From assembly GCA_021153565.1 (NCBI GenBank), contig JAJKJU010000176.1:1128-65127 (forward strand): a stretch of 64,000 nucleotides of DNA, given 5' to 3'. The notes under the pieces were generated by a model, which saw nothing but the letters and a program-made list of their open reading frames with translations, was not told where the DNA came from and did no database searches. Positions 30,460 through 64,000 of this stretch are shown piece after piece. Source of the DNA: Rhizobacter sp. (GTDB lineage Bacteria > Pseudomonadota > Gammaproteobacteria > Burkholderiales > Burkholderiaceae_C). A program made the position numbers and the translations under genes. How positions within the stretch are numbered: position 1 is the first letter of the stretch; every line of letters begins with the position of its first letter.

Positions 30460-31310
30460 TTGCCAACGACAACCAACCGATCCACAAGTACTTGCGCGAG
30501 ACCCTCGCACAGGTGCTCGACAGCGACCTCGCGCGCGCCGGAGATGACCTTCCGCTGGTGGAGTTGGGGCTCGATTCCGTGCCCTGCGCGGCCTGGGTCC
30601 GCCTGATCGCACAGCAGTACGGCGTGGCGCTCAGCGTGGCCGAGGTGTGCGAATGCGGCACCTTGCGCGCGGTGGGCCAGCGCGTCAACGCGGCGCTGGC
30701 CTCGCGAGCGACGGCGGGGGAAGGGCGTGCGGCCGACGAGGTGCTGGCCTGCGTGCGGCACAGCCTCGCCGTCGAACTCGACCGGCCGGAAGCCGACCTG
30801 GAAGACGACACGCCGTTCCTCGAACTGGGGCTGGATTCGATCACCGGCGTCACCTGGACGCGCAAGCTCAACACGCACTTCAAGCTCTCGCTGTCGGTGG
30901 CCAAGGTGTACAGCCACCCGACGCTGAGGGCGCTGGCTGCCCACATCGCGGTATCGACCGCGAAGCTCATCCCGGGGGTCGCCGGGCAGGAGCCGAATGG
31001 CAAGGCGCCGGTTCATGCGGGGAAGGCCGAGGCGGCGCCCGCACCTGCACCCGCGCAGCCCGGGGACGCCGTGCCGGGCGATGCGGTGGCACCGGTGGCT
31101 GCCGTGTTGCGCCGCCTGTTGGCGCAGGAGCTGGATGCCGACGAGCGCGGCATCGACGATGCCATGCCGTTCCTGGAGCTGGGTCTGGACTCGATCACTG
31201 GCGTCACCTGGATGCGCAAGATCAACACCCGCTTCGGCCTGGCGTTGTCGGTCGCCAAGGTCTACAGCCATTCGACCATCGCCGGGCTGGCGGCGTTCAT
31301 CGTGCAGCAG
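30447..31310 (+). other. triple ACP, each with Trp six residues after the Ser (beta-branching flag)
   Basis: LGLDSVPCAAW, LGLDSITGVTW and LGLDSITGVTW. The second and third copies are clearly paralogous (VAKVYSHPT / VAKVYSHST). Confidence 0.85.
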
Positions 31311-34300
31311 GGCGTGAGTGCCGGCCCGCCGGAGGCGACGCAGCGGCCTGCCGCCGCACCAGGCGCGCGGGCTGCACCCGCATCCCCGGCATCGCAAGCC
31401 GGGCCGCCTGCGCTGCAAGCGGCACCAGGGCCGGCCTTGTTCGCGCAGGCGCCGCCCGTGCCGGCCGGCATCGCGGTGATCGGCATGTCAGGCCAGTTCC
31501 CGATGGCCGACGACCTGGAAGCGTTCTGGCAGAACATCCTCCAGCGCAAGGACTGCGTCAGCGAGGTGCCGGCATCGCGCTGGCGCATCGACCGGCATTT
31601 CCAGTCCGGCGCGCCGCGGCCCGGCAAGTCGTACAGCAAGTGGATGGGCGTGCTCGATCGCGCGGCCGAGTTCGACCCGCTGTTCTTCAACATCTCGCCG
31701 GCCGAGGCGCAGTTCATGGACCCGCAGCAGCGCCTGGTGCTGCAGCAGAGTTGGCATTGCATCGAGGATGCCGGCGGCGACCCCGATCGCCTGGCCGGCA
31801 CCGCCTGCGGCGTCTTCCTCGGCTGCTCGTCCAACGGCTACGGTGAGCAGGTCGACGAGCGCGACTGGAACGCGCACCAGAACCTGGGCAGCAACAGTGC
31901 CATCCTGGCCAGCCGCATCGCCTACTTCCTGAACCTGCGCGGGCCCTGCCTGTCGATCGACACCTCGTGCTCGTCCTCGCTGGTGGCCATCGCCAGCGCC
32001 TGCGACAGCCTCTTGCTGGGCGAGAGCGAGGTCGCGCTGGCCGGCGGCGTGTGGGTGATCCCCGGACCGGGCGTGCACGTTGCGATGAGCCAGCTCAACG
32101 CACTGTCGCCCGATGGTCGCTGTCGCGCCTTCGACGACCGCGCCAACGGCTTCGTACCGGCCGAGGGTGTGGGCTTCCTGATGCTGAAGCGGCTGTCCGA
32201 TGCGCAACGCGACGGCGACCGCATCCATGCAGTCATCGCCGGCTGGGGCGTCAACCAGGACGGCAAGTCCAACGGCATTACCGCGCCGAACGGCGACGCC
32301 CAGGCGGCGCTGCAGGAGCGGGTGTACCGGCGTTTCGGCATCGACCTCGCGGACATCGACCTGGTGGAGGCGCACGGCACCGGCACCTCGCTGGGCGACC
32401 CGGTGGAGGTGGATGCACTCACCGCGAGCTTCCGGCGTTTCACGCCGCGGGTGGGCGACTGCGCGCTCGGCTCGGTCAAGAGCAACATCGGGCACACCGC
32501 CAGCGCCGCCGGCGTGGCCAGCGCGCTGAAGGTGATCCTCGCGCTGAAGCACCGGGTCCTGCCGCCCACCGCGCTGTTCGAGCGGATGAACCCGCACATC
32601 GACCTGTCTTCGACGCCGTTCCGGGTGCAGGCCGGGCCGGCGCCCTGGGCCGGCCGGGGCCGGCCCCGCATGGGGGTGGTCAACTCCTTCGGCTACAGCG
32701 GCACCAATGCGCACCTGGTGATCGCCGAGGCGCCGCTGCAGCCGCCGATGCAGGCCCCGCAGGGCGAGTGTCTGGTGGTGTTGTCGGCGCGCACTGCCGC
32801 GCAGTTGAAGGAGCAGGCGCAGCGCTTGTCGGCGCACCTCGAACGCCATGCGGACGTCGCCCTCGGCGACCTGGCCCACACCCTGTTGCACGGACGCAAG
32901 CACTGGCGCCATCGCCTGGCGGTCGTCGCGGGCGACCTGGCGCAGCTGCAGCGTTCGCTGCGCGCGTGGCTGGACCAGGGCAGCGACCCGGCCGTGTGCC
33001 AGGGCGAGGCCCAGCCGGGCCAAAGCGGCGCTGCCGTCGAGACGCCGGGGCTGTCCGAGGCCGCGCAGCAGTACGTGCGCGGCGCTTCCCTGCGTTGGGA
33101 GGCGCTGTTCCCCCACGGCCGGCAGCGGCTGCTGAGCCTGCCGGGCTATCCGTTCTCGCGCGAGCGGCATTGGCTGCCCTTGCATCCGCTGCTGCACCGC
33201 GACGAATCCACTGCGTCGCAGGCGCGGTTCAGCGCAACCTTCGATGGCACGGAAAGCTTCCTGGACCACCATCGCGTGCAGGGCGAGAAGGTGCTGCCCG
33301 GCGCCGCCTATCTCGAGATGGCGCGCGAGGCGGTGGCCCGTGTTCACGGTGAGGAAGCGGTGGCCCGCATGCAGCTGCAGGACCTGGTCTGGCTGCGGCC
33401 AGCCACCTGCCGTGCGGGCCTGGAGCTGGCGGCCACACTGACGCCCCAGGCCGAGGGGCTGCTGGGCTTCGAGGTCACGGCCCAGGGCGGGGAGGGGCAG
33501 CCCTTGCTGCTGTGCCAGGCCCGCGTCCGGCTCGACGCCGGGGTGATGCCCCGGCCGGTCGACCTGCAGGCATTGCGCGAGCGCTGCCGCGAGCCGCTGA
33601 TGCCAGCCGAGGATTTCTATGCGCTGTACGCCGCGGCCGGCATGGCGTACGGCCCGGCGCACCGCAGCGTCGTGCGCCTGCTCCAGGGCCGCGGGGCGCA
33701 GGGCCAGCCCGAGGTGCTGGCGGAGATTGCGCTGCCGGCGACTGTGCAGGGGCATCGCCACGGCCTTCATCCCAGCCTCGTCGACGGCGCACTGCAGGCC
33801 ACCGTGTGCCTGGGATGGACCGCGCAGTCGCCGGCGGCATCGCAGCCGGCGCTGCCCTTCGCCCTCGGCGGGCTGCAAGTGCTCGGTGCGACGCCGTCAC
33901 GCGTGTACGCCTGGATCCGGCCTTCGACGGCCGGTCGTGTCTCCGGGGCGGTGCACAAGCTCGACATCAGCCTGTGCGATGAGCAGGGCCGGCTGTGCGC
34001 CGAACTGAGCGGCCTCAGCGTGCGCGCCCTCGCGCGTGGCGAGCAGCCTGCGACCGGGCCCACGCCGGTGTCGCGGGCCGCCGTGCCTGTGGCCGCTGCG
34101 CCGCAAGTGGCCACGGCTTCGGGGGCACCGCGCCCGGCGCAAGTCGGCGACCGCGCCTTGCACTACTTCCGGCAGCAATTGGCGGTGGCGCTGAAGCTGT
34201 CGGTCGGCGAACTCGACGTCGATGCGCCGATGGAGCGCTACGGCATGGATTCCATCATGGCGATGGAACTCACCCGGCACCTGGAGGAGAGCTTCGGCCC

Positions 34301-47400: not shown

Positions 47401-49033
47401 GGGGCGCCAGCTCGCAGACGGCGCCATCGAGTACCTGGGGCGCAACGACCAGCAGGTGAAGATCCGCGGCTTCCGCATCGAGTTGGGCGAGATCGAGGCG
47501 CGCCTGGCCGAGCATCCGGCGCTGGACGATGCGCGCGTGGTTGCGCGCGACCATGGCGAGCAGGACAAGCGGCTCGTCGCGTACCTCGTGCCCGGCATGG
47601 AGCAGGCCGGCACCGTGCGGCGGCTGGCGCGGCTGCGGCGCACCGAGCCGCAGGCGATGGCACGGCTGTACCACCTGCCCGGCGGGCTGCCGGTGTTCCA
47701 CCAGAACAAGAGCGAGACGGACTTCGTCTACGACGAGATCTTCACGCACCTGGACTACCTGAAGCACGGCGTGACGCTTCCCGACGGTGCCTGCGTGTTC
47801 GACGCCGGCGCCAACATCGGCCTGTTCTCCCTGTTCGTGCACCAGCGCTGCCACGATGCCACCATCCATGCCTTCGAGCCGATTCCCCCGGTGTTCGACA
47901 CCTTGCGCCTGAACAGCGAACTGCACGGCTGGAAGGGCCGGCTGCACGCCTGCGGCCTGGCCGCGCAGGCGGGCGAGGAGGTCTTCACCTTCTATCGCCA
48001 CAACACGGTGATTTCCAGCAGCATGACCACCGCGCAGCAGGCGCACGAGGTGGTGAAGTCCTTCCTGATGAACCGGCAGGCCGCCGGCGGTGGAGAGGGC
48101 AGCGCAACCGCGCCTGCGGCAGTCAGCGAGACCGACGTCGAGCGGCTGGTCGATGCCCGGCTGGACAGCGAGCAGTTCCGCTGCGCGCTGCGTCCGCTGT
48201 CCGATGTCATCGCCGAGAGCGGCGTCACGCGGATCGACCTGCTGAAGGTCGACGTGGAGAACGCCGAGCTTCAGGTGCTGCAGGGCATCCGCGAGCACGA
48301 CTGGCCCAAGATCCGGCAGCTGGTCGTCGAAGTGCACGACGTGGATGGACGGCTCGCGCTCATCGAGGGCATGCTGGCCTCGCGCGGCTTCCGCGTGTGC
48401 CATGGGCAGGACAACCGGCTGCTGCGCGACACGCGGCTGTACAACCTCTATGCGGTGCGCGAGCCGGCCGGGGCGGCAGCGCCCGTTGTCGTTGCGCAGT
48501 CCTCGGCGGCGTGGCTGTCGGAGGCAGCGCTGCTGGAGGACGTGCAGGCTCGCCTGCGGGCGGGCCTGCCGGCCCACATGGTGCCGGGGGCCTATGTGCT
48601 GCTGGACGAACTACCGCTGACCGGCAACGGCAAGCTCGACCTGCGTGCGCTGCCGGCGCCCGGGACGCAGGCCGGGTGCGCGCCGGATCGCCGCGCACCC
48701 GCCACCGAGCTGGAGCGCATGCTGCAGGAGATCTGGTCCGATCTGCTGGAGCTGGAGCCGTCCCGCCTCAGCGCGGACAGCAACTTCTTCGCCTGCGGCG
48801 GCCACTCCTTGCTCGTCACCCGGTTGGTGAACCGCATCGCGCAGCGCACCGGCGTCGATCTGCCGATCCAGTGCGCGTTCGAGCTGCCCACGCTCGAACA
48901 GATGGCCACCGAGTTGGAGCGCCTGTCGCAATCGGTGCCGGCGGCCATCGCCGACAACGTCGACGCCGTCCTCGCCAGCCTGGCGCTGGTCGAGAACATG
49001 TCCGAGGACGAACTGGACTCTTTGCGGATCTGA
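41459..49033 (+). CDS. bimodular NRPS: C-A(Ser)-PCP-C-A(Thr, interrupted by FkbM-like methyltransferase)-PCP
   Basis: ATG 41459 overlaps the upstream TGA (ATGA), with GAAGGA 8 nt upstream. The track start at 41159 is an open upstream extension. HHLVFDGAS (His 41942-41947). YTSGSTGQPKG. PCP GGHS Ser 44606-44608. HHLIDDATS (45269-45274). YTSGSTGKPKG. PCP GGHS Ser 48806-48808. Confidence 0.92.
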   Translation: MNKNENEILAGFKQGRYSAEKVLEFYRTRAAAEPQRLPLSEGQKGLWLLHQLDPQSDIYNVPVCLRVKGPLRADVLRRAVEHVLAMHPQLTSRVQEHDGEPWLVQRGGQAEFVHQPLELPSGQLPAFLKAEARRPFDLGAVLHRVRLFAVAPDEHVLLLVFHHLVFDGASAPVLLRDLMASHEALAEGRPLPSVVDRANDFPAWESDFLASEEGERCRGHWRRVLGGAQALPVLTLDIERAAPGARPQGATWCSLLDGDAKAAAGRFCQAQGVQPAVFFLAVYQLLLQRYSGLSDIIVGVPSMGRPDLDWADSVGYFVNMMPVRQVVDGQKDFASHLRELKLAMADAMDHAAYPFPCMVKDLNLPSGSSSASPVFQVAYTFQNKNMMYLAADGQARPALGQAVEFIDEVSQEGEFKLLLEVCEHPDRFQLCFKYDAQRFSADDIERLAGHYRVLMEGLLAAPARPVGSQAMVSEAQRRELLALSAGPVRAYSGHACLHQLFERMVQRHGERPALVDGEGRLSYAELNQRANQLAHRLRRHGVGPDTVVGLFMERSLEMVVGLLGIVKAGGAYLPLEPGYPEARIAYMLQNSGARLVLCQPKAAAGRWADAVQRLDVDLGAQGAPASDFFATEPDADIAPRDIGLDSRHLAYVIYTSGSTGQPKGVMIEHRAAVNRIEWMQDEYRLDGSDVVLQKTPFSFDVSVWEFFWPLLAGARLVMAPPGVHRDPGRLLALIREAGVTTLHFVPPMLELAVAEPGWSACTTLRRIFCSGEALPPELPQRHHALNPAPLYNLYGPTEAAIDVSHWPCPRDHAGGVVPIGKPIQNIQLYVLDDQRQLQPPGCAGQLYIAGDGLARGYLNRPELSALHFIDNPFGGARSRMYGTGDLVRWLPDGQLEFLGRIDGQVKIRGHRVELGEIEAALAQHPDVRACVVLARRDAGGQQLAAYVVLAEGAQPQGCQARLAQHLSGLLPDTMVPSAFVVLPALPLTSNGKIDRAALPAPDLQALARSEHVAPRSDTERRLQQAWAALLGLDAQQIGIGDNFFALGGHSLLVPRLAARLAQQGLACELRALFDAPTLADMAAAIERGGAQQAQAVPPSAIPADCERITPAMLPLLALSQEEIDRIVAAIPGRAPNVQDIYPLAALQEGMLFHHLKDHSRDPYVLSGLFSFADRACLERFAQALQSVIDRHEVLRTAVVSAGLAQPVQVVCRQARLKVDALAVAPGERAEDAARARLAGSQAMPLEQAPLMRLKVAEDRDSGTCYAIFNMHHLIDDATSLGLLFHELVAHLAGRQGGLPPSAPYREFIARAQSQQEDPRAFFRTALGDVEEPTIAFNLHDVHGDGRRVLDLRREVDGALGRQIRASARRLQVSPAALFHAGWALVAAACSQRDDVVFGTVLSGRLQGTPGIERMLGNFINTLPVRVRLKGCSVRELVMDTARSLRELIRFEQAPLSLAQDCSGVAHGVPLFNTILNYRHLERHERIDEADLAAFGIRSLTGILERSNYPLAVSVDDLGDAFSIDAQVEQSQDAGLVIDYVLHAMAGLVAALEDEQASARPATEIEVLPPALREQVLLGWNRASDHAGPHGLHELFERRVARDPQAVAVVCESRQLSYGELNAQANRLARYLASVGVGPESRVGLCAPRSERLLVGLLAILKAGGAYVPMDPDYPVERLNHLLEDSAPLLMLTDGPLAEGLDAGEVPCLDLSADASRWAGLPAGNLSSMETGLKPHHLAYIVYTSGSTGKPKGVMVEHCNVTRLFSATDAWFHLGPQDVWTLFHSVAFDFSVWEIWGAWLHGGRLVVVPQAVARNPRAFFDLLCREGVTVLNQTPSAFRQLSAVQHEQGPAHRLRVVVFGGEALELASLKPWVEREANRATQLVNMYGITETTVHVTYRPITLEDIERGGPSPIGRRIPDLRLYLLDAQRQPVPLGAVGELYVGGAGVARGYLNRPELSAQRFLADPFCGVPGERMYRSGDLGRQLADGAIEYLGRNDQQVKIRGFRIELGEIEARLAEHPALDDARVVARDHGEQDKRLVAYLVPGMEQAGTVRRLARLRRTEPQAMARLYHLPGGLPVFHQNKSETDFVYDEIFTHLDYLKHGVTLPDGACVFDAGANIGLFSLFVHQRCHDATIHAFEPIPPVFDTLRLNSELHGWKGRLHACGLAAQAGEEVFTFYRHNTVISSSMTTAQQAHEVVKSFLMNRQAAGGGEGSATAPAAVSETDVERLVDARLDSEQFRCALRPLSDVIAESGVTRIDLLKVDVENAELQVLQGIREHDWPKIRQLVVEVHDVDGRLALIEGMLASRGFRVCHGQDNRLLRDTRLYNLYAVREPAGAAAPVVVAQSSAAWLSEAALLEDVQARLRAGLPAHMVPGAYVLLDELPLTGNGKLDLRALPAPGTQAGCAPDRRAPATELERMLQEIWSDLLELEPSRLSADSNFFACGGHSLLVTRLVNRIAQRTGVDLPIQCAFELPTLEQMATELERLSQSVPAAIADNVDAVLASLALVENMSEDELDSLRI
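42943..44462 (+). other. adenylation domain, hand-extracted code D-V-W-H-F-S-L-I-D (Ser-type, EntF-like)
   Basis: Read from FDVSVWEFFWPL, TTLHFVPPML, IFCSGEAL and NLYGPTEAAIDVS. Confidence 0.7.
46225..48662 (+). other. adenylation domain, code D-F-W-N-V-G-M-V-H (Thr-type), interrupted between the A8 region and A10
   Basis: Read from FDFSVWEIW, TVLNQTPSAF, VVFGGEAL and NMYGITETTVHVT. The A10 motif LTGNGKLD reappears only at ~48620, after an insert of roughly 310 aa. Confidence 0.75.
47600..48540 (+). other. FkbM-family-like methyltransferase domain inserted in the Thr adenylation domain
   Basis: ACVFDAGANIGLFSLF (~47797-47830) matches the FkbM-type D-x-G-A-N-x-G motif. IDLLKVDVENAELQVLQG lies downstream. 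The insert sits between KRLVAYLVPG and LPAHMVPGAYVLLDELP. Confidence 0.7.
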
Positions 49034-55000: not shown

Positions 55001-58000
55001 GGGCCAGCGCCTGTACCGGACCGGCGACATCGTGCGCTGGCGGCCCGATGGCCTGCTGGAGTTCGTGGGCCGCGTGGACGACCAGGTCAAGGTGCGCGGC
55101 TTCCGCATCGAGCTGGGCGAGATCGAGAGCGCGCTGCAGGCCCACCCGGACCTCAGGAGCGCCGTGGTCGCCACCGAGGCCGCGCAGGGCTCCGACAGCA
55201 AGCGCCTGGTGGCCTACATCTGCCCGAACGAGGACTACCTCGAGCGCGCCGCGCAGACGCTGCGGCCCGACAGCCTGGAGCGCTGGAACGAGCTGTTCGA
55301 GGACGAGTACGCCCGCGGCCGGCACGACGATGCCGCGCCGGGCGACCTGAACCTGGTGGGCTGGAACAGCAGCTACACCGGCGAGGCGATCCCCCAGGCG
55401 CAGATGGAGGAATGGGTCGACGGCGCGGTGCAGCGCATCCGGGCGCTGCGGCCGCGCCGCGTGCTGGAGATCGGTTGCGGCTCCGGCCTGCTGCTGCTGC
55501 GCTACGCCGGCGAGTGCGAATCGGTGCATGCGAGCGACATCTCCGCCGCGGCCCTGGCCGGCGTGCAGCGCGAGCTGAGCCGCCGGCGGTGGGATCACGT
55601 CAGCCTGTCGCAAGGCGACGCGCTGGACTTCTCGGCGCTCGCGGGCCGCACCTTCGACACGGTGGTCATCAACTCGGTCGTGCAGTACTACCCGAGCCGG
55701 GCCTACCTGGAGCAGGCGCTGCAGGGGCTGTGGCCCTATATCGAGGAAGGTGGCCGCATCTTCATTGGCGACGTGCGCAACGCCGACCTGATGTCGGCCC
55801 ACTTGTGCGCGGTGGAGCGCAGTCGCATGGTGGGCGGGGTGCCCGCCGCCACGCTGGCCGGCCGCCTGTACCGCCGCCGCATGCAGGAGGGCGAGCTGCT
55901 CGTCAGCCCGAGCTTCTTCATGCACCTGGCGCGGCGGCTTGCCGGCGCCGGCCGCACGGACATCCTGCTCAAGCGTGGCCTCGGCGACAACGAGATGCTG
56001 AGCTACCGCTATGACGTGGTGCTCGCCAAGGGCGCGGCGCAGCCGGCCCCGGCACTGGCCTGGTTGCCGGCGTCTTCGCCCGACGACGTGCGCCAGCTGC
56101 TGGAGCGCGGCGCCCCCGAGCGCTTTGGCGTGCATGGGCTGCGCAACCCCCGCATCCGCGAGGACGTGGCGGCCGCCGACGTGCCGGGCCGCGCACCGGC
56201 GGGCCAACGGGTCGATCCGCTGGGGCCCAGCCGCTGGTCCGAACAGGCCAGGCAGGAGGTCGAGGCCTTCGACGCGCTGATCGAGCATGCCGCGGCCCGA
56301 GGCTACCGCTGCGAAGCCACCTGGTCGCAGGACGTTCCCGATGGCGTGGACCTGCTCTTCGGCCGCAGCGAGCTGCCCGCCGTGCAGGCGCGCAGCCCCT
56401 ATGCCCAGACCTACTGGACCAACCACCCGCAGATCGCCCGGCTGGGCCAGGAGTTGTCGCGTGGCGTGAAGCAGCACCTGTCGCGCACGCTGGCCGAATA
56501 CATGGTGCCCAACATCTTCGTGGTGCTGGAGGCACTGCCGCTGACGCCCAACGGCAAGGTCGACAAGCGCGCCTTGCCGGCGCCTGAGGAGGAGGACGTG
56601 CAGAAGGAGGCCTATGCCGCACCGCGCAACGGCGAGGAACAGGCGCTGTGCCGCATGCTGCAGGAGATCCTCGGCCTGCAGCGCGTGGGCATCCGCGACG
56701 ACTTCTTCGAACTCGGCGGCCACTCGCTGCTGGCCACGCGGCTGACCGCCCGGGTCCGGCAGGAGCTGGGCAAGGATTTGCCGCTCAAGGCCGTCTTCGA
56801 CGGCCGCACGGTGGAGCGCATCGCGGCCCTGGTGCAGCAAGAGAAGGCCGAGGCGCAGACGGTGCTGCCGCGCCGCGTGGCCGCGGACTCGGGGGCGCTC
56901 GCCCCGATCTCCTTCTACCAGGAAGAGGATCTGTGGTTCCTGCGTCGGCGCCCGCACCTGGCGCTGGGCCACGACAACGTGCAGCTGGTGTTCCGCCTCA
57001 TCGGCGAGCTGGACCTCGACGCTTATGCGCGCAGCTGCCAGTTGCTGGTCGAGCGTCATGGCGTGCTGCGCACGAGCTTCGTCGAGAAGGACGGCGTGGC
57101 GTGGCAGAAAGTGAATCCGGCCGAGGGCTTTCAGGCGGGCATCGAGAGGATGCCCGACGAGAATGCGCTGGAGGAGTTCCTCAAGGCCGAGAAGGCGCGG
57201 CCATTCGAGCCGGCCGGGCCCTTCACCGTGCGCATCCACCTGTTGGTGTTCTCGGATCTGGAGCGCGTGGTGGTCGTGACGCGGCCTTGGGGCATCTTCG
57301 ATGGCTACTCGACGCCCGTCGTGCTTTTTCCCGACCTGTCCGCGATCTACGCGGCCATCAGTCTCGGGCGGGTGCCGCAGCTGCCGCCGCCGCCCCTGCA
57401 GTACGTGGACTTCGCGCACTGGCAACGCGAAACCTTCACGCCCGAGGTGCTGCAGCCCAAGATCGACTACTGGACGCAGCGGCTGGCTGGCGCGCCGCGC
57501 GACCTGCGGTTGAAGACCGACTACCGCCGGCCGTTGGTGCTCTCCGGCAAGGGCGCGGCGGTGCATTTCCTGGTCCCGCCCAAGTTCATCAAGAAGCTCA
57601 AGGACTTCGGCCGGCAGCATGACTTCTCGCTGTACGTGGTGATGCTGTCGGCCTACGCCATCTTGCTGGCCGACTACACCGACGAGACCGACATGCTGAT
57701 CGGCTCGCCGATCAGCAACCGGTCGCGGCCGGAGCTCGAGCAGATGATGGGCCATTTCGTCAACGTGCTGGTCATGCGCGCCGACGTATCGCAAGGGCAG
57801 CGCTACATCGACGTGCTGTCGCGCATGAAGGTGACGGCGCAGGAAGGGCTCAACCACGCCGACGTGCCGCTGCGCTGCGTGGTGCAGAGCCTGTCGCTGC
57901 CCACGCTGCCGGGCCAGGCCTCGTTGTTCCACGTGATGTTCAACCTGGTGACGCTGCCGGAGGACTTCTCCAACCGCTACAACAACCAGGCCATCGTGCA

Positions 58001-58244
58001 CTACCGGCCGGAGTCCGAGACGGCCAAGCTGGACCTCAACATGGCCATGCAGGACACCAACATGGGCCTGGCCGCCTCCATCGAGTACAGCATCGACCTG
58101 TTCGCCAGGACGACCATCGAAAAAATGGCGGCCCGCTACCGACAGGTGCTGGCCGACATGGTCGCCAACCCGCTGGCCCTGCTGTCCGAGCGCTCGGACC
58201 TTGCCGTCGCCCTGGAGGAGGGCGATGAAAAGCCGGCGGCCTGA
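49047..58244 (+). CDS. NRPS: C-A(Thr)-PCP-C-A(unassigned, interrupted by N-methyltransferase-type domain)-PCP-C-like (degenerate active site)
   Basis: Three in-frame ATGs at 49047, 49053 and 49059 follow GGGGAAG; the first was taken as the start. HHSVSDGWS (49587-49592). PCP GGHS Ser 52239-52241. HHLIEDASS (52902-52907). FTSGSTGRPKG. VLEIGCGSG. PCP GGHS Ser 56724-56726. The terminal C-like domain reads RPWGIFDG. Stop TGA at 58242-58244. Confidence 0.9.
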   Translation: MNMNMTQQDIQAVLARIRSLPPKQQQALVRMLKQQGVDISSAQAIGRRPASQEPAPLSFAQQRLWFLAQLEGHSAHYNIPMALRLAGRLDRPALVHALSAIVERHEALRPRFVEVDGVPYQRTEPAVNFAVQEETLPEGTDLRALCEDEALRPFDLGAGSLVRMRLVACGPEEHVLLVTMHHSVSDGWSLGVFFRELVSLYGAFSRGEPSPLQPLPIQYADYAHWQREWLSGQVQERQIEYWKQKLAGVDPQLMLPTDRPRPPVKTYTGAHEPLQCSAALLEGLKALGRAHESTLYMTLLSVWAVLLHRYSRQTDIAIGTPLANRNRPEVENLIGFFVNTQVMRADLDGQPSFAQLLARMKRTALEAYGHQDVPFEAVVDALQLERSLSHSPVFHVMFALQEAQAERSHRLADLEVSFVDFDYKITKFDLTLDLRETPDGLAGSIEYNCDLFDRATVQRMIRHYVALLEAVVAEPQAPVSRLVWLGPQEREQVVRTWNPCADHAPAQGMHELFEAQVARTPDAVAVSCDGAQLSYAELNRRANRVAHALRGLGVKPDTLVALCVERSLEMVVGLLGIVKAGGAYVPVDPAYPAQRIRYILEDSGAGLLLTQAALAPRLPLATQRVVLLDGTGQGGEDLLAGQPETDIPVAESGLRPSNLLYVIYTSGSTGHPKGVLVQHDNVARLFHATEATFRFGASDTWTLFHSFSFDFSVWELWGALLHGGRLVVVPKTVAQSPSEFYRLLVDESVTVLNQTPSAFEQLVAVDQAERGRLSLRTVVFGGEALNPAILAPWFERHGESIDMVNMSGITETTVHVTCKLLSAGDAAGQRSIVGRKLPDLRLYVLAEHMEPLPVGVTGEMYVGGAGVARGYLNRPELTAQRFVDDPFAAQPGERLYRTGDLARWLPDGNLEFIGRADHQVKIRGFRIETGEIESQLAQSPQVQSCVVLVREDRPGQKQLVAYVVPREPLQDDLHQALGRHLRERLPDYMVPTAFVVMQAFPLTSNGKLDRSALPAPDKTAYAADEYVTPATEAERVLATLWAELLGFEPGRISARDNFFALGGHSLLITVLVARLKEKGYDATVRSVFGSDTLADLASQIEQGASSEAYVVPPHRVPAGCERLTPDMLTLVTLDQRELDAVAGTVPDGAANVQDIYPLVPSQQGILFHHLIDPDNDPYIIPVLLAADGPVACDAFVNALRRLLARHDVMRTAVVTSGLLEPVQVVYRQAELPIEHLVLEPGRDAMAQAQALLERPRRMPLDRAPLLQLTIAADPASQRRFILLNVHHLIEDASSLRLIFAELRASMAGRLEQIGPVPVPYRDFVAHTLHQVRTNDAEGFFRRRLAEVSEPTIPFRLANVHGDGRTIRDLRRSLPAALDASIRRQAQRLRISPASLFHAAWSLVVAGASGRDDVVFGTVLSGRLQGVPGVERMLGNFINTLPLRVVLKDRSALQLVLDTDAALKELIEYEQSSLIMAQRCSGLGSDVPLFTSMINVRHFEGGEGEPLQESGVRVLGSVDRTNYPLGVSVDDLGTAFSVNVQVDEAVSTETVTGSFQAALQGLADALQEGRAEALPALSIDVVPADERRRQLVDWNRTDTPYPADQVLPGLFDEQVLRSPDAIALVFGTQQLSYAQLNARANKVAHFLHEAGVRPDTVVGLCMERSVDMVAGLLGILKAGGAYLPIDPAYPRERIAGMLQDSGISLLLSQTRVALTLPDFDGEVIHLDAGVRASDGAKVLVNQPGHDLPREHVGLQPHHLAYVIFTSGSTGRPKGVMVEQRGVVRLVRNPDYCPSGAHTVMLQHSSISFDVGSQEVLGPLLNGGRLVLHQGETKDIVQLLDHVERHEVNMMCLSAAFLPAFVQEAAHRRLPLQCLCVGGEAFSARDVLALYERHPGLSVVNGYGPTENSIASTCHVIPQDIAPDAPIPIGRPIAQSTAYVVNRRMRLLPCGAVGELCVGGVGVARGYLGHPELTRERFVPSPFEGSEGQRLYRTGDIVRWRPDGLLEFVGRVDDQVKVRGFRIELGEIESALQAHPDLRSAVVATEAAQGSDSKRLVAYICPNEDYLERAAQTLRPDSLERWNELFEDEYARGRHDDAAPGDLNLVGWNSSYTGEAIPQAQMEEWVDGAVQRIRALRPRRVLEIGCGSGLLLLRYAGECESVHASDISAAALAGVQRELSRRRWDHVSLSQGDALDFSALAGRTFDTVVINSVVQYYPSRAYLEQALQGLWPYIEEGGRIFIGDVRNADLMSAHLCAVERSRMVGGVPAATLAGRLYRRRMQEGELLVSPSFFMHLARRLAGAGRTDILLKRGLGDNEMLSYRYDVVLAKGAAQPAPALAWLPASSPDDVRQLLERGAPERFGVHGLRNPRIREDVAAADVPGRAPAGQRVDPLGPSRWSEQARQEVEAFDALIEHAAARGYRCEATWSQDVPDGVDLLFGRSELPAVQARSPYAQTYWTNHPQIARLGQELSRGVKQHLSRTLAEYMVPNIFVVLEALPLTPNGKVDKRALPAPEEEDVQKEAYAAPRNGEEQALCRMLQEILGLQRVGIRDDFFELGGHSLLATRLTARVRQELGKDLPLKAVFDGRTVERIAALVQQEKAEAQTVLPRRVAADSGALAPISFYQEEDLWFLRRRPHLALGHDNVQLVFRLIGELDLDAYARSCQLLVERHGVLRTSFVEKDGVAWQKVNPAEGFQAGIERMPDENALEEFLKAEKARPFEPAGPFTVRIHLLVFSDLERVVVVTRPWGIFDGYSTPVVLFPDLSAIYAAISLGRVPQLPPPPLQYVDFAHWQRETFTPEVLQPKIDYWTQRLAGAPRDLRLKTDYRRPLVLSGKGAAVHFLVPPKFIKKLKDFGRQHDFSLYVVMLSAYAILLADYTDETDMLIGSPISNRSRPELEQMMGHFVNVLVMRADVSQGQRYIDVLSRMKVTAQEGLNHADVPLRCVVQSLSLPTLPGQASLFHVMFNLVTLPEDFSNRYNNQAIVHYRPESETAKLDLNMAMQDTNMGLAASIEYSIDLFARTTIEKMAARYRQVLADMVANPLALLSERSDLAVALEEGDEKPAA
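50568..52095 (+). other. adenylation domain, code D-F-W-N-V-G-M-V-H (Thr-type)
   Basis: Read from FDFSVWELW, TVLNQTPSAF, VVFGGEAL and NMSGITETTVHVT. Confidence 0.7.
53850..56580 (+). other. adenylation domain of unassigned specificity (hand code D-V-Q-C-C-G-G-I-A), interrupted by a methyltransferase
   Basis: Read from SFDVGSQEVL, NMMCLSAAFL, LCVGGEAF and NGYGPTENSIAST. The A10 motif LTPNGKVDKRAL lies at ~56550. Confidence 0.6.
55225..56480 (+). other. NRPS N-methyltransferase-type domain inserted in the adenylation domain
   Basis: GWNSSYTGEAIP, VLEIGCGSGLLLL (~55461-55500) and NEMLSYRYDVVL correspond to the classical NRPS N-MT signature motifs. Confidence 0.7.
56900..58190 (+). other. C-terminal condensation-like domain with degenerate HHxxxDG (reads PWGIFDG)
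   Basis: VVVTRPWGIFDGYS: a Pro codon (57285-57287) and a Trp codon (57288-57290) occupy the two His positions. The rest looks like a C-domain fold (YVDFAHWQRE, IDYWTQRLAG, MGHFVNVLVMR). Confidence 0.7.
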
Positions 58245-58290
58245 GAGGCCATTGCAACGACACAACACCCGGAAAGACACGACTTATTAT

Positions 58291-58536
58291 ATGCAACAGG
58301 AAGACATCACGAAACTGCTGGCCGCCGCCATCCTGGAGCTGCGGCCCTCGCTGGAGGGACGGCCCCTTGGCCCCAGCGATTCGCTGGAGGCGCTCGGCCT
58401 GGACTAGATGGAGCGCGCCGACATCGTCATGCTCGTGCTCGAGCACATGAACCTTCGGATCCCGCTGGTCCAGACCTTCGGCCCCCGCAACATCGGCGAA
58501 CTCGCGAGGCTGCTGAGTGAGAAATCCGCCGCCTGA
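58291..58536 (+). pseudogene. free-standing donor acyl carrier protein of the beta-branching cassette (AcpK / CurB / mupirocin donor-ACP type), interrupted by an in-frame TAG at the Ser attachment codon
   Basis: ATG 58291 ...SDSLEALGLD, then TAG (58405-58407), then MERADIVMLVLEHMNLRIPLVQTFGPRNIGELARLLSEKSAA, then TGA (58534-58536). Everything is in one frame and totals 81 codons plus the stop. The stop falls where the G(L/A)DS Ser belongs. The layout resembles Bacillus AcpK as I recall it (...LGADSVDRAEIITMVLEDLSLKIP...NIGELAEVL). Confidence 0.8.
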
Positions 58537-59731
58537 ATTGCTGGTGACCGGGATGGGCGTGGCCACGGCCGTAGGCGTGGGCCTGCCCGCCTTCGAGCAG
58601 GCGCTGTTCGAGGGCGCGCATCGCTTTGCCGTGATGCGGCGCCCGGGTCGCCAGCGCGACACCGCCTTCATCGGCGCCGAGATCGCTTCGGTCCCGAGCA
58701 GCGGCCGGCTGCCTGCCCATGTGCTGCGCACCGCCTCGCTGAGCTCTCGGGTGGCGCTGGCCACGCTGGAGCAGGCGTGGCAGGAGGCTGCGCTGGACGA
58801 CACGGACCCGCAACGCGTGGGCCTGGTCGTGGGCGGCAGCAACCTGCAGCAGCGCGAACTCGTCCTGCTGCAAGAGCGCCACCGCGACGCGCCCGGCTTC
58901 ATGCCGCCCAGCTATGCGATGACCTTCCTGGACAGCGACGTCTGCGGCCTGTGCACACAGGCCTTCGGCATCCGCGGCTTTGCGCATGCCTGCGGCGGCG
59001 CTTCCGCGGCGGGACAGCTGGCGATCATCGAGGCCGCGGAGGCGGTGACTGCCGGCCGGGTGGATGCGTGCGTCGCCCTCGGCCCGATGATGGACCTGTC
59101 GTATTGGGAATGCTTGGCCCTGCAGTCCAGCGGCGCGATGGTGTGCGACGGCGCGCAGGACCCTGGCGGCGCCTACCGACCCTTCGACCGCCGGCATGCC
59201 GGCTTCGTCTACGGCGAGGCCTGCGCAGCCCTGGTCGTCGAGCGCGCCGGGGCGCGGCGGCTGCCGGCGGCCGCTCATGGGCGCATCGCCGGCTGGGCCG
59301 TGCAAATGGACGCCAACCGCAATCCCAATCCTTCGGTGGAAGGCGAGGCCCAGGCCGTTGCCGCCGCGCTGGCCCATGCGGGCTGGCAGCCGAAGGACGT
59401 GGACTACGTGAACCCGCACGGCACCGGCTCGCCGCTGGGCGACACCACCGAGCTGAAGGCGCTGCGCGCCTGCGGTCTCGCGCACGCGGCGATCAACGCC
59501 ACCAAGTCCATCACCGGCCACGGCCTCGCGGCCGCGGGCGCGGTGGAGGCGGTGGCGACGCTGGTGCAGATGAAGCGGGGGTGGCTCCATCCCACCCGCA
59601 ACCTCCGCGAGCCGCTGGATCCGGACTTCGGATGGGTGGCCGACACGTCCCGCGAGATGCACATCGGACGCAGTCTCAGCCTCAGCATGGGCTTCGGCGG
59701 CATGAACACTGCCCTGTGCCTGACCCAATGA
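58517..59731 (+). CDS. decarboxylating ketosynthase of the HMGS cassette (KS with active-site Cys replaced by Ser; PksF/CurC/MupG type)
   Basis: The GTG 58517 start must lie upstream of the conserved LLVTGMGVATAVG. The active-site region reads ACGGASAAGQ, and Ser 59003-59005 aligns by hand with the FabF catalytic Cys. Both His motifs are kept (NPHGTGS, SITGHGL). It sits immediately upstream of the HMGS. Confidence 0.85.
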   Translation: MRNPPPELLVTGMGVATAVGVGLPAFEQALFEGAHRFAVMRRPGRQRDTAFIGAEIASVPSSGRLPAHVLRTASLSSRVALATLEQAWQEAALDDTDPQRVGLVVGGSNLQQRELVLLQERHRDAPGFMPPSYAMTFLDSDVCGLCTQAFGIRGFAHACGGASAAGQLAIIEAAEAVTAGRVDACVALGPMMDLSYWECLALQSSGAMVCDGAQDPGGAYRPFDRRHAGFVYGEACAALVVERAGARRLPAAAHGRIAGWAVQMDANRNPNPSVEGEAQAVAAALAHAGWQPKDVDYVNPHGTGSPLGDTTELKALRACGLAHAAINATKSITGHGLAAAGAVEAVATLVQMKRGWLHPTRNLREPLDPDFGWVADTSREMHIGRSLSLSMGFGGMNTALCLTQ

Positions 59732-59738
59732 ATCCAAC

Positions 59739-59744
59739 AAGGAG
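59739..59744 (+). promoter_or_regulatory. Shine-Dalgarno-like site for the HMGS gene
   Basis: AAGGAG lies 7 nt upstream of ATG 59752. Confidence 0.65.
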
Positions 59745-59751
59745 AACCCCC

Positions 59752-61014
59752 ATGCCCCCCGTCGGTATCGAGGCAATGAACGTGTTCGGCGGCTGCGCAG
59801 TCGCGGACGTGATGGAACTGGCCCGCCACAGGCAGCTGGAACCGTCCAGGTTCGAGAACCTGCTGATGAAGGAGAAGACGGTCGCATTTCCGTTCGAGGA
59901 CCCGGTGACCTTCGCGGTCAACGCCGCCAAGCCGATCGTCGACGCGCTCTCGCCGCAGGAGCGCGACCGCATCGAACTGCTGATCACCTGCACCGAATCG
60001 GCCTTCGACTTCTCCAAGTCGCTCAGCACTTACCTGCACGACCAGCTGGGGCTGAACCGCAACTGCCGCATGTTCGAGTTGAAGCAGGCCTGCTATGCGG
60101 GCACCGCGGGCCTGCAGATGGCGGCGAACTTCATCCTCGCCGGCACCTCGCCCGGCGCCAAGGCGCTGGTGGTGGCCACCGACATCTCTCGCTTCGTCAT
60201 CGAGGAGGGTGGCGACCGGTTGTCCGCCGACTGGTCGTACGCCGAGCCCAGCGGCGGGGCCGGCGCGGTGGCCATGCTGGTCAGTGACCAGCCCACGGTG
60301 TTCCAGCTCGACGTGGGCGCCAGCGGCTACCACGGCTACGAGGTGATGGACACCTGCCGGCCGGGGGCGGACACCGAGGCCGGCGATGCCGACCTGTCGT
60401 TGCTGTCCTACCTCGACTGCCATGAGCAGTCCTTCGCCGAGTACTGCCGCCGTGTCGAGGGCGTGAACTATCGCAAGACCTTCCAGTACCTCGCGTTCCA
60501 CACGCCCTTCGGCGGCATGGTGCGAGGCGCGCACCGCTCGATGATGCGCAAGGCCGGCAACGCCACGCCGGGCGAGATCGCCGACGACTTCGAGGTGCGC
60601 GTGCGGCCGGGGCTCGCCTACTGCCAGCGGGTGGGCAACATCATGGGAGCGACCGTGTTCCTCTCGCTGGCCAGCACGGTGTGCAACGGCGACTTCAACC
60701 GCCCGGCGCGCATCGGCTGCTTCTCGTACGGGTCAGGCTGCTGCGCGGAGTTCTACAGCGGCGTGGTCACAGCCGAGGGCGCCGCACGCCTGAAGGCGAT
60801 GGACATTGCCGGCCACCTGGACCGCCGCTACCGCCTGCCGATGGACGAGTACGAGCGCCTGCTCGACGACAGCAGCCTGGTGCGTTTGGGCACCCGCAAC
60901 CAGTCCTTCGACCTGGCGGCGGCGAGCCGCATCGTGCAGGCCGCTGGTGGCACGCCGAGGCTGGTGCTGAAGGCCATCCGGGAGTTCCACCGGGAGTACG
61001 AGTGGGTGCAGTGA
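59752..61014 (+). CDS. HMG-CoA-synthase homologue for polyketide beta-branching (PksG/CurD/MupH type)
   Basis: AAGGAG (59739-59744) lies 7 nt before ATG 59752. The N-terminus MPPVGIEAMNVFGG...FENLLMKEKTVAFPFEDPVTFAVNAAKPI...IELLITCTES and the catalytic-Cys context ELKQACYAGT (Cys 60091-60093) are typical of PKS-associated HMGS. The track start at 58777 is an artefactual extension. Confidence 0.9.
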   Translation: MPPVGIEAMNVFGGCAVADVMELARHRQLEPSRFENLLMKEKTVAFPFEDPVTFAVNAAKPIVDALSPQERDRIELLITCTESAFDFSKSLSTYLHDQLGLNRNCRMFELKQACYAGTAGLQMAANFILAGTSPGAKALVVATDISRFVIEEGGDRLSADWSYAEPSGGAGAVAMLVSDQPTVFQLDVGASGYHGYEVMDTCRPGADTEAGDADLSLLSYLDCHEQSFAEYCRRVEGVNYRKTFQYLAFHTPFGGMVRGAHRSMMRKAGNATPGEIADDFEVRVRPGLAYCQRVGNIMGATVFLSLASTVCNGDFNRPARIGCFSYGSGCCAEFYSGVVTAEGAARLKAMDIAGHLDRRYRLPMDEYERLLDDSSLVRLGTRNQSFDLAAASRIVQAAGGTPRLVLKAIREFHREYEWVQ

Positions 61015-61784
61015 ACTACCGGACGCTGAAGCTGCGGCGCCAGGGGCCGGCGTGGCATGTGCAGCTGAACCGGCCGGAGGCCGGCAACACGATCGACGCC
61101 CGCATGGTGGGCGAGCTGGAGGACGTGCTGGGCACCCTCGTCCCCGGCTCGGGCGCTTCCATCCTGGTGCTCGAAGGCCAGCCGGAGGTGTTCAGCCTGG
61201 GCGCGGACTTCGGGGAAATCGGCGCGGCCGCGGCCGACGGGCAGGGCATGGCCTTCGATCCGCAGCAACTGTTCGGCGTGCTCGAGCGCCTGGCCTTCGG
61301 CGACGTGATCTCGGTGGCCCACGTGCGCGGCAAGGCCCATGCCGGTGGCGTGGGCCTCGCGGCGGCTTGCGACGTCGTGCTCGCCGACGCGAGTGCGGTG
61401 TTCAGCCTGTCCGAGCTGCTGTTCGGGCTGGCGCCGGCGGTGATCTTTCCGTTCCTCCTGCGGCGCCTGGGCTTCCAGCGCGCGCACTACCTTGCCAGCA
61501 CGACGCAGCCGGTGGGCGCGCGGCAAGCCTGTGAATGGGGTCTGGTGGACGCCTTCGAGGAACGAAGCGATCTGCTGCTGGCCCGGCACCTGTCGCGCAT
61601 GCGCCGCATGCCGGCCGCCGCGGTCGCGCGCTACAAGGCCTACGTGCGCGAGCTTGCCGCGCTGCCGGCCGGTACGCGCGAGGCCGCCTTGCGGCTGAGC
61701 AAGGCCATGTTCGCCGACCCGCAAAGCATGGCCGCGATCCGGCGCTATGCGGAGCAAGGGCTGTTTCCGTGGGAAACGGCCTGA
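61011..61784 (+). CDS. crotonase-fold enoyl-CoA hydratase, ECH1 (dehydratase) type of beta-branching cassettes (PksH/CurE type)
   Basis: GTG 61011 overlaps the HMGS stop (GTGA). LNRPEAGNTID, GADF, FSLSELLFGLAPAVIFPFLLRRLG and the C-terminal GLFPWETA match my recollection of the PksH-type ECH1, not the PksI-type ECH2. The exact start (GTG 61011 or a downstream ATG) is uncertain. Confidence 0.8.
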   Translation: MNYRTLKLRRQGPAWHVQLNRPEAGNTIDARMVGELEDVLGTLVPGSGASILVLEGQPEVFSLGADFGEIGAAAADGQGMAFDPQQLFGVLERLAFGDVISVAHVRGKAHAGGVGLAAACDVVLADASAVFSLSELLFGLAPAVIFPFLLRRLGFQRAHYLASTTQPVGARQACEWGLVDAFEERSDLLLARHLSRMRRMPAAAVARYKAYVRELAALPAGTREAALRLSKAMFADPQSMAAIRRYAEQGLFPWETA

Positions 61785-61946
61785 GAGGCTGAGAGTATTT
61801 CGATCATGCCCGCTCATCACGCCAGAAGGCGCCCGCTCGTCGTTGCAAATGCCCGCCATAGCCCGAGCTATGGCTGTGCTTTGCGCCTGGATCGGCCACC
61901 TTCTGGCGCGCTGCTCGGGCACGCTCGAAAAACTCTCAGCCTCTGA
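61781..61946. repeat. MITE/REP-like long imperfect palindrome, complete copy, in the ECH-AT intergenic region
   Basis: The 13-nt terminal inverted repeats are AGAGGCTGAGAGT (61784-61796) and ACTCTCAGCCTCT (61932-61944). An internal inverted repeat pairs CGCCAGAAGG (61820-61829) with CCTTCTGGCG (61898-61907). The central hairpin is GCCATAGC-ccga-GCTATGGC (61855-61874). By hand alignment about 52 of 71 arm positions are complementary. The ECH stop TGA (61782-61784) lies inside the repeat. Confidence 0.8.
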
Positions 61947-61974
61947 ATCCAGACATCTCTAGAAGGGAAGAAGA

Positions 61975-63906
61975 ATGAAGACCAAGACCGTATGCATGTT
62001 CCCGGGCCAAGGCTCGCAATTCGGGGGCATGGGCGAAGCACTGTTCGAGCGCTACCCCGACCTGGCGGCGCAGGCCGACGCCTGCCTGGGCTACTCGCTG
62101 CGCGAGCTGTGCGTGCGCGATCCGGACCACGTGCTCAGCCACACGCAGTACACCCAGCCCGCGCTGTACGTCGTGGGCGCGCTGGCTTACCTGGACTGGC
62201 GGGCCCAGGGCCATCCGGCGCCCGACTACGTGGCCGGTCACAGCCTGGGCGAGTACTGTGCGCTGTTCGCCGCGGGTGCGTTCGACTTCATCACCGGGCT
62301 GAAGCTGGTGAGCAGGCGCGGCGAGCTGATGAGCCGCGCGCCCAAGGGCGCGATGGCGGCCATCCTCAACATCGACCCGCCGAGCGTCGAGCGCGTGCTG
62401 GCTTCGCTGCCATTCAGGAACATCGACCTGGCCAACATCAATTCGCGCAAGCAGTGCATCATCTCCGGCCTGTACGAGGAGATCCACGCGCCCCAGCTGC
62501 AACAGGCCTTCGCCGAGGCGGGCGCAAGCGTCCTGCCGCTGAACGTGAGCGCCGCATTCCACTCCCGCTGCATGAAGGACGTGGAGGGCGAGTTCGGCCG
62601 CTTCCTCTCGCAGTTCAACTTCGGCGAGCTGAAGATCCCGGTGGTGGCCAACTACACGGCACGCCCGTATCCGTCCACCGGCTATTTGGACCTGCTGCGC
62701 TTGCAGATCTCCCATTCGGTGCGCTGGTACGAATCGGCCTCCTGGCTGCTGGCGCAAGGCTGCACCCACTTTCAAGAGCTGGGTGCCGGCGAGGTGCTTG
62801 CCAGGCTGCAGGTCAAGATCGCGGCCGATCCGCTGGTGCTGCCGCTCGACGAGGCGCCAGCCGCGGCCGCGCCATCCACGGCGCCGCGCCCCGGCGCGAA
62901 TCCGGACCTGCAACCGGGCATGCGCCCCGCGCCGCGCCGCCGGGCGAGGCTGGTGTTCATGTACGCGGGGCAGGGCAGCCAGTACTACCGCATGGGCCAG
63001 CAGCTGTACGACACCCACGAGGTGTTCCGCGGCGCCATGGACCGCTGCGCGCAGGAGTACCGCGAGCTCACCGGGCAGTCGCTGCTGGACCTGCTCTACC
63101 ACGGCCCGGGCAAGGGCACGCCCTTCGTCGAGTTGCAAGGCTCGCATGGGGCGCTGTTCAGCATCGGCCATTCGCTCACCGAAACCCTGCGGGCCGAAGG
63201 CTTCGAGCCGGACGCAGTGCTGGGGCACAGCCTGGGCGAGTACGTGGCGTGCGCCGTCGCGGGCGCCCTGGATTGGCGTCAGGCGCTGCGCCTGGTCCTG
63301 CGCCAGTCGACCCTGTTCGGGCCGCTGGTGGGGCAGGGAGGGCTGCTCAGCGTGCTGGCCGAACCGCGCTTGTTCGAGCAGCGTCCGGCACTGTTCGGCG
63401 ACCTCGCGCTCGCCGGCGTGAACTACCAGGGCAACTTCCTGCTCAGCGGCCGGCATGCGGCGCTGGAGCTGGCGCAGGCCCGGCTGGAGGATGAAGGCAT
63501 CGTCTGCATCCGGCTGCCGGTGCCGGCGGCCTTCCATTCGCCGGAACTCGATCCGTTCGAGCAAGCCTTCGTGAGCGCGGTGCGGGAGATGCCCATCCAC
63601 CGGCCGCGGCTGCCGATGTATTCGGCTGCCACCGCGGCGGTGCTCGGCTCCGAGTGGCTCGAAGACCATGCCGCTCATTTCTGGCGCGTCGTGCGCGAGC
63701 CGATCCGCTTCGACCGGCTGATCGACTGCGCGTTCGAGGAGGCGGGCGACGTCTATTTCGTGGACCTCAGTGCAAGCGGCTCCTTCGCCAACTTCATGAA
63801 GTATGGCTTCCCGGGCCGCCAGCCTTGCCGCAGCGCGATCAACCAGTTCGGCAATGACAAGGCCTCCCTGTCCGCGCTGCTCGCCGATCTGCGTGCGCTC
63901 GGCTGA
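61975..63906 (+). CDS. discrete trans-acting acyltransferase didomain (AT-AT; one half may be an acyl-hydrolase proofreader)
   Basis: ATG 61975 follows GAAGGGAAG. First half: FPGQGSQFGGMG, GHSLGE (Ser 62242-62244), SAAFHS. A Pro/Ala-rich linker spans ~62830-62945. Second half: YAGQGSQYYRMG, GHSLGE (Ser 63229-63231), PAAFHS. This is the only GQGSQ/GHSxG acyltransferase signature pair in the window. Confidence 0.9.
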   Translation: MKTKTVCMFPGQGSQFGGMGEALFERYPDLAAQADACLGYSLRELCVRDPDHVLSHTQYTQPALYVVGALAYLDWRAQGHPAPDYVAGHSLGEYCALFAAGAFDFITGLKLVSRRGELMSRAPKGAMAAILNIDPPSVERVLASLPFRNIDLANINSRKQCIISGLYEEIHAPQLQQAFAEAGASVLPLNVSAAFHSRCMKDVEGEFGRFLSQFNFGELKIPVVANYTARPYPSTGYLDLLRLQISHSVRWYESASWLLAQGCTHFQELGAGEVLARLQVKIAADPLVLPLDEAPAAAAPSTAPRPGANPDLQPGMRPAPRRRARLVFMYAGQGSQYYRMGQQLYDTHEVFRGAMDRCAQEYRELTGQSLLDLLYHGPGKGTPFVELQGSHGALFSIGHSLTETLRAEGFEPDAVLGHSLGEYVACAVAGALDWRQALRLVLRQSTLFGPLVGQGGLLSVLAEPRLFEQRPALFGDLALAGVNYQGNFLLSGRHAALELAQARLEDEGIVCIRLPVPAAFHSPELDPFEQAFVSAVREMPIHRPRLPMYSAATAAVLGSEWLEDHAAHFWRVVREPIRFDRLIDCAFEEAGDVYFVDLSASGSFANFMKYGFPGRQPCRSAINQFGNDKASLSALLADLRALG

Positions 63907-64000
63907 GAGGCTGAGAGTATTTCGATCATGCCCGCTCATCACGCCAGAAGGCGCCCGCTCGTCGTTGCAAATGCTCGCCATAGCCCGAGCTATGGCTGCG
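63903..64000. repeat. second copy of the same element, cut by the window edge
   Basis: 63903-64000 matches 61781-61878 at 96 of 98 positions. The mismatches are 61853 C vs 63975 T and 61877 T vs 63999 C. The AT-AT stop TGA (63904-63906) occupies the same repeat position as the ECH stop. Confidence 0.85.

Follow-up and report, generated by a model that had tools for sequence, protein, structure and literature searches.

Why should a β-branching cassette encode a donor acyl carrier protein (ACP) whose phosphopantetheinyl serine is replaced by a stop codon? We asked this question of an HMGS cassette lying near the end of a 64-kb stretch of DNA (the window, by which the whole analysed stretch is meant), and considered whether the stop belongs to the organism and its pathway, to one strain, or to the deposited sequence. 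The gene and the codon concerned are as follows.

58291 to 58536, plus strand: discrete donor ACP of the CurB/AcpK type belonging to the HMGS cassette; 81 codons, with an in-frame TAG as codon 39.
58405 to 58407, plus strand: TAG codon at the phosphopantetheinyl Ser column; the base that varies is 58406, which is A in the window and C (giving TCG) in 17/17 other contigs.

A single frame holds the ATG at 58291, the TAG at 58405-58407 and the TGA at 58534-58536, and its translation is MQQEDITKLLAAAILELRPSLEGRPLGPSDSLEALGLD, stop, MERADIVMLVLEHMNLRIPLVQTFGPRNIGELARLLSEKSAA; immediately around the stop the product reads SDSLEALGLD, stop, MERADIVMLVLEHMNLRIPLVQTFGPRNIGELARLL. The original prediction of an 81-codon, ACP-sized frame with both halves in register is confirmed in its coordinates and its translation. 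With Ser restored at the stop, the protein matches the Pfam PP-binding family (PF00550) at 30.7 bits (cut-off 20.8), and the alignment places the attachment Ser at codon 39. CurB (PDB 5KP7) is the best solved-structure match of the Ser-restored ACP (E 1.8e-17, residues 1-78 aligned), and the stop sits on the Ser of its G-I-D-S motif; the PDB matches that come after CurB are mitochondrial and FAS ACPs with E values of at least 0.058. When the repaired protein was compared by tblastn with all fetched loci, Ser was found at the stop column in 54/54 orthologous donor ACPs with full-length alignments, and identity to the ORFs in the AcpK position of Bacillus loci was 42%. The proposal that the TAG occupies the Ser of G-x-D-S is accordingly upheld by Pfam, CurB and orthologue alignments alike, and the column check that had been suggested, an alignment with CurB and with orthologous cassettes including the Bacillus AcpK position, gives the same column. 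The attachment Ser of the G-x-(D/N)-S motif is missing in the window allele only, being present in the 17 other contigs and in every one of these orthologues. By homology, the window allele appears to be either a disabled copy of a member of the donor-ACP family or a copy with one mis-called base.

The interpretation of the stop depends in part on its surroundings, the relevant features of which are listed below.

58517 to 59731, plus strand: decarboxylating ketosynthase (KS0, PksF/CurC type), recognized by Pfam KS N- and C-terminal domains and by alignment with PksF.
59752 to 61014, plus strand: HMG-CoA-synthase-like β-branching enzyme (HMGS), recognized by Pfam; it carries the second private substitution of the window, at 60948.
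61002 to 61784, plus strand: ECH1, a PksH-like dehydratase of the enoyl-CoA hydratase family (ECH_1, 1e-40).
61975 to 63906, plus strand: free-standing acyltransferase (trans-AT) directly downstream of the cassette, with two Acyl_transf_1 stretches and two GHSxG-type motif regions.
30447 to 31320, plus strand: N-terminal end of the third megasynthase, with three ACP domains in tandem, each with G-L-D-S-x5-W and with Ser codons near 30576, 30837 and 31191.

The catalytic Cys of KS0 is replaced by Ser as in PksF (GGASAAGQ, versus DTxCSS in the modular KS domains of the window itself), both His residues are kept, and the GTG start at 58517 overlaps the end of the ACP gene. ECH1 shares 44% identity with the ORF in the PksH position of a Bacillus spizizenii locus and gave no match to the next ECH gene (ECH2) there. 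Pfam, the PksF alignment and the PksH-position match thereby agree with the order first read from the DNA, namely ACP, Cys-to-Ser KS, HMGS and ECH1. Three Logan contigs fetched for the AT region do not differ from the window there in their DNA, and the look-up behind them lists the contig in up to 10 samples. The rest of the window encodes a hybrid trans-AT PKS/NRPS, in which the remaining carrier motifs all lie inside megasynthases; besides the gene at 58291-58536, no discrete ACP was found in the 64 kb.

Six PP-binding matches were obtained in the third megasynthase protein, and a motif scan of the window found Trp at Ser+6, which we take to be the spacing of the β-branching Trp flag, only in its three tandem ACPs. 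Because these three tandem ACPs carry the Trp flag, they offer a plausible acceptor for the cassette, and we presume from their motifs that they are the acceptor ACPs for β-branching. The flag itself is predictive, though not absolute, of β-branching acceptor ACPs (PMC10006238). No ECH2 decarboxylase gene or domain was detected in the 64 kb, ECH1 being present alone, so that, if none is encoded outside the window either, the β-branch might keep its carboxylate and be of carboxymethyl or glutaconyl type. The triple ACPs are immediately preceded, at about 29020-30387, by the C-terminus of a 7,591-aa megasynthase, which carries a methyltransferase domain followed by an α/β-hydrolase domain; this is an unusual context for a β-branching module. 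Elsewhere, the fourth megasynthase (NRPS) has an FkbM-family methyltransferase domain at about 47801-48394, where it separates the second A domain from the carrier domain belonging to it; the nearest database relatives of this region are partial Streptomyces proteins of just 59% identity.

Comparison with characterized systems places the cassette among familiar ones. CurB, the donor ACP of the curacin HMGS cassette (PDB 5KP6, 5KP7 and 5KP8, solved with the HMGS CurD), has the same size as the window ACP, shares with it the helix II motif L-G-x-D-S-(V/M)-x-R-A-(E/D)-I and the C-terminal N-I-G-E-L-A, and has the same genomic partners (Cys-to-Ser KS, HMGS and ECH1). The two differ in that CurB retains the Ppant Ser where the window allele has TAG, and in that the host of CurB is a cyanobacterial cis-AT system, whereas the window derives from an uncultured, Burkholderiales-type host with a trans-AT PKS/NRPS. 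The order ACP, KS0, HMGS, ECH1 is likewise that of AcpK-PksF-PksG-PksH in the Bacillus pksX (bacillaene) cluster, with identities to the window of 42% for the ACP, about 56-57% for KS0 and about 44% for ECH1, and with an identical GGASA(S/A)GQ active-site replacement in PksF and the window KS0. Bacillus pksX differs in having an ECH2 (PksI) directly after ECH1, where none is visible in the window, and the Ser is intact in all Bacillus loci. The closest cassettes by KS0 (56-59% identity) occur in Lysobacterales MAGs, in pksX-type clusters of Bacillus and Paenibacillus, and in Entotheonella. Judged by these likenesses, the β-branching cassette of the window is of the standard CurB/AcpK type, and what is new is its uncultured host.

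Other assemblies of the same DNA carry most of the evidence on the stop itself. C was found at 58406, giving TCG, in all 17 independent contigs that cover the site, comprising eight near-identical contigs (about 99.9-100% identity to the window) and nine Logan contigs of a sister lineage (~90% identity). At least three series of runs or samples are represented among the near-identical contigs (Logan SRR349542xx, Logan SRR99527xx, and JGI 3300012469 with 3300012212). A look-up of the exact KS0 product returned six Logan assemblies (SRR34954202, 203, 204, 214 and 215, and SRR9952761), all six of which have an uninterrupted 103-aa PP-binding ORF before KS and are identical to the window over 4.0-6.7 kb save at 58406 and 60948. 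Since none of these six site-spanning contigs breaks at 58406, the TAG allele was not detectably co-present in the six samples. An intact 81-aa ACP is also annotated in a second Burkholderiales MAG, on a 32,277-bp contig (MBW8846504.1, 'MAG: acyl carrier protein [Burkholderiales bacterium]'). By comparison, among ~15 billion proteins, the products into which annotation divides the TAG-split ACP (38 or 60 aa, plus 42 aa) were found only on one 69,950-bp public contig, present in NCBI and JGI/IMG, from which the window derives.

From 55098 to 63928, about 8.7 kb over which several near-identical assemblies can be compared, only two bases of the window differ. One is 58406, where C->A is a nonsense change; the other is 60948, 2.5 kb away, where C->T turns HMGS Gly399 from GGC to GGT and is synonymous. 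Five near-identical contigs extend over 60948, and each has C there; as the sister lineage has C at both sites, both window bases (58406 A and 60948 T) are derived. The search for comparable DNA was extended in three ways. An exact-pattern scan that spanned the site and left the variable base open (N) gave 0 matches in metagenome_contigs, a collection without relevant samples. Scans of genome_contigs and metagenome_contigs with the KS0 protein returned relatives of at most 59% identity, which served for the Ser-column count and not for comparison of alleles. The C-terminal 525 aa of the fourth megasynthase, used as a query for near-identical fragments, likewise gave nothing above 59% identity, and the pattern of private SNVs is thus one of the 53.2-63.9 kb comparison.

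Within the fifth megasynthase, a JGI contig (L053) differs from the window at three single bases, 53861, 54528 and 55029 (V=V, Q/K and I/L); one difference is synonymous and two are conservative, and this stretch is covered by L053 alone, so that each difference may be private to either side. Because L053 departs from the window at these three further sites, microdiversity in the population is real, at about 1e-4 to 1e-3.

The original prediction that a single C->A change, TCG to TAG, accounts for the stop is thus borne out by the near-identical and sister-lineage contigs. It had also named reads with a sense codon at the site as an observation that would count against the stop; TCG was indeed seen there, in the assemblies of other samples rather than in reads of this sample. 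From the aligned contigs we regard it as settled that the wild-type codon of the organism is TCG (Ser), and as equally settled that the stop is a single derived C->A private to one contig. Private to that contig and seen in none of the other assemblies from this population, the stop is not a trait of the organism, its lineage or its pathway.

The position of the stop is a priori improbable. Single-base changes could create 5,019 nonsense codons in the coding sequence of the window, and just 1 of these falls on the Ser codon. This small chance was, however, singled out post hoc by the original prediction, and as it applies to random mutations and random errors to the same degree, it does not discriminate between an allele and an error. 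Ordinary strain-private nonsense alleles and MAG consensus errors likewise show a single derived change, no further decay and intact relatives; the window stop is unlike them solely in striking the one essential codon. The codon affected is of the commonest Ser type in the window (TCG, 398 of 972 Ser codons).

Constraint on the genes was estimated against the sister lineage. The dN/dS values were 0.30 for the ACP, 0.23 for KS0, 0.11 for HMGS, 0.19 for ECH1 and 0.24 for the AT. Given these low ratios, and an ACP that is one base apart from intact alleles and otherwise 100% identical to them, the ACP and its cassette were under purifying selection until very recently. A decaying pseudogene was considered and rejected on the same grounds, there being only a single lesion.

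Two readings of the A at 58406 have to be weighed in earnest. We lean slightly towards a real allele: it is somewhat more probable than not that the strain or sub-population represented by the contig truly carries the TAG, as a null allele of very recent origin. This lean is based on the second private, synonymous SNV at 60948, on the microdiversity seen with L053, and on the uninterrupted giant ORFs: across 64 kb of megasynthase coding sequence the contig has zero frameshifts, indels or other stops, from which its base quality looks high. Support for the allele comes from this one assembly, and its two private substitutions are too few for a test of synonymous excess.

The competing reading, which we consider quite possible though not the favoured one, is that the base at 58406 is wrong in the deposited contig, in which case the organism has TCG and both its donor ACP and its β-branching are fully functional. 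Low coverage, an assembler path through a damaged read or minor variant, or a polishing error are possible sources. TCG in every other assembly, including the second MAG with its intact annotated ACP, the complete identity of the remaining gene to intact alleles, and the confinement of the split products to the window contig would all be expected of such an error. C->A is moreover the classical signature of oxidative (8-oxoG) library damage and a typical artefact of this kind, and this, together with the lack of independent support outside this assembly, is what speaks against a real allele. Set against an error are the two substitution errors that it would require in about 8.7 kb (58406 and 60948), or else one error beside a real SNV, in a contig that is otherwise clean over its megasynthase ORFs, and the fact that De Bruijn assemblers normally want several reads per k-mer path.

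If the favoured reading of a real null allele is followed through, its consequences can be predicted from the established biochemistry of HMGS cassettes. Translation would end after residue 38, leaving an N-terminal peptide of 38 residues that lacks the attachment Ser, as would any product re-initiated at the adjacent ATG (58408); with the Ser in neither product, no holo-ACP would form. The Cys-to-Ser KS would then be left without a malonyl-ACP to decarboxylate and HMGS without acetyl-ACP as its nucleophile, no branch would be introduced into the β-keto intermediate carried by the three Trp-flagged ACPs (30447-31320), and the assembly line would either stall or release an unbranched shunt product. 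The KS gene begins, at 58517, inside the last codons of the ACP gene, and an early stop 110 nt ahead of that start may therefore also weaken translational coupling into KS, HMGS and ECH1.

It is a good deal less probable, and in our estimate unlikely, that the amber allele is both real and maintained by a soil population in nature at an appreciable frequency. Should that be so, β-branching would be off in its carriers, which would be non-producing 'cheaters' or would make an unbranched congener of the trans-AT PKS/NRPS product, and nature would have provided, through a single base that knocks out the donor ACP, a ready-made genetic experiment on the pathway.

Loss of this ACP need not abolish branching if another carrier, either a second discrete ACP elsewhere or a modular ACP, supplies the donor function, as the original prediction had offered for its third explanation. 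The closest genome relatives of KS0 give this idea some footing: six loci yielded no homologue of the ACP in the 10 kb around KS0 (L003, L007, L016, L017, L018 and L023; Lysobacterales, Tahibacter and Dokdonella loci), ECH1 following KS0 directly in L003, L007 and L023, and in a further locus (L020) the ACP lies about 6 kb downstream of KS0 (L020:16882-17112). From these loci the place of the ACP in the cassette is not fixed, and the Lysobacterales examples indicate that a cassette can work with a non-adjacent ACP. The window itself lends the proposal no support, as it contains no second discrete ACP, and the purifying selection acting on the present ACP in the two lineages speaks for a need for it. 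We regard a real null allele rescued in this manner as very improbable.

Decoding of the TAG, whether by an amber suppressor tRNA, by pyrrolysine-type recoding or by programmed read-through, would yield a full-length ACP and would fit the intact downstream half lying in frame with the upstream one, as well as the stop usage of the window, where ten of ten genes end in TGA and the sole in-frame TAG is that of the ACP. Stops dominated by TGA are, however, normal for a Burkholderiales-type genome of 71% GC, a non-Ser residue inserted at this codon could not be phosphopantetheinylated, and TAG is present in 0/17 related contigs, among them those about 99.9-100% identical to the window. Neither a tRNA gene nor an Rfam element was found in the 64-kb window. 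Recoding as a feature of the lineage was rejected because the TAG is not conserved and the window offers no tRNA or Rfam match, and we give decoding of the codon in any form hardly any credence.

Hardly any more credible is an attachment Ser elsewhere, for instance in the upstream S-D-S-L-E (codons 29-33), with the TAG missing the active residue: a DSL tripeptide does lie ten residues upstream of the stop, but the same upstream D-S-L occurs in CurB (TDSLKKLGIDS) and in the Entotheonella orthologue, that position is mostly non-Ser in orthologues (E-K-L, D-Q-L, D-R-L) as against a G-x-(D/N)-S Ser in 54/54, and the CurB, orthologue and Pfam alignments together rule out SDSLE as the attachment site.

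For product prediction or for cloning of the cluster, TCG (Ser) at 58405-58407 is to be used as the wild-type sequence, and the split ORFs in public databases (38 or 60 aa, and 42 aa) are to be treated as one ACP gene. If the A is real, a secondary-metabolite pathway that is costly to run has very recently acquired a loss-of-function allele, of which the contig is the record; such events are common and to be expected. Private nonsense SNVs are ordinary in MAGs, and this one has little import beyond annotation.

A minor observation concerns the intergenic DNA on either side of the AT gene. Between the ECH1 stop and the trans-AT start lies a MITE-like element of about 161 bp (61784-61944) with 55-nt terminal inverted repeats that are 82% complementary; neither an Rfam match nor an unusually stable fold was found for it. 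In the ~90% sister lineage (L055), ECH1 and AT are separated by just 31 nt and the element is lacking. Right after the AT stop (63903-63998) begins a second copy, which is 99% identical over 96 nt and runs off the end of the window. This repeat explains the breaks of Logan contigs at 61805, 61918-61941 and 63928, and is the sole such explanation among the repeated 31-mers of the window.
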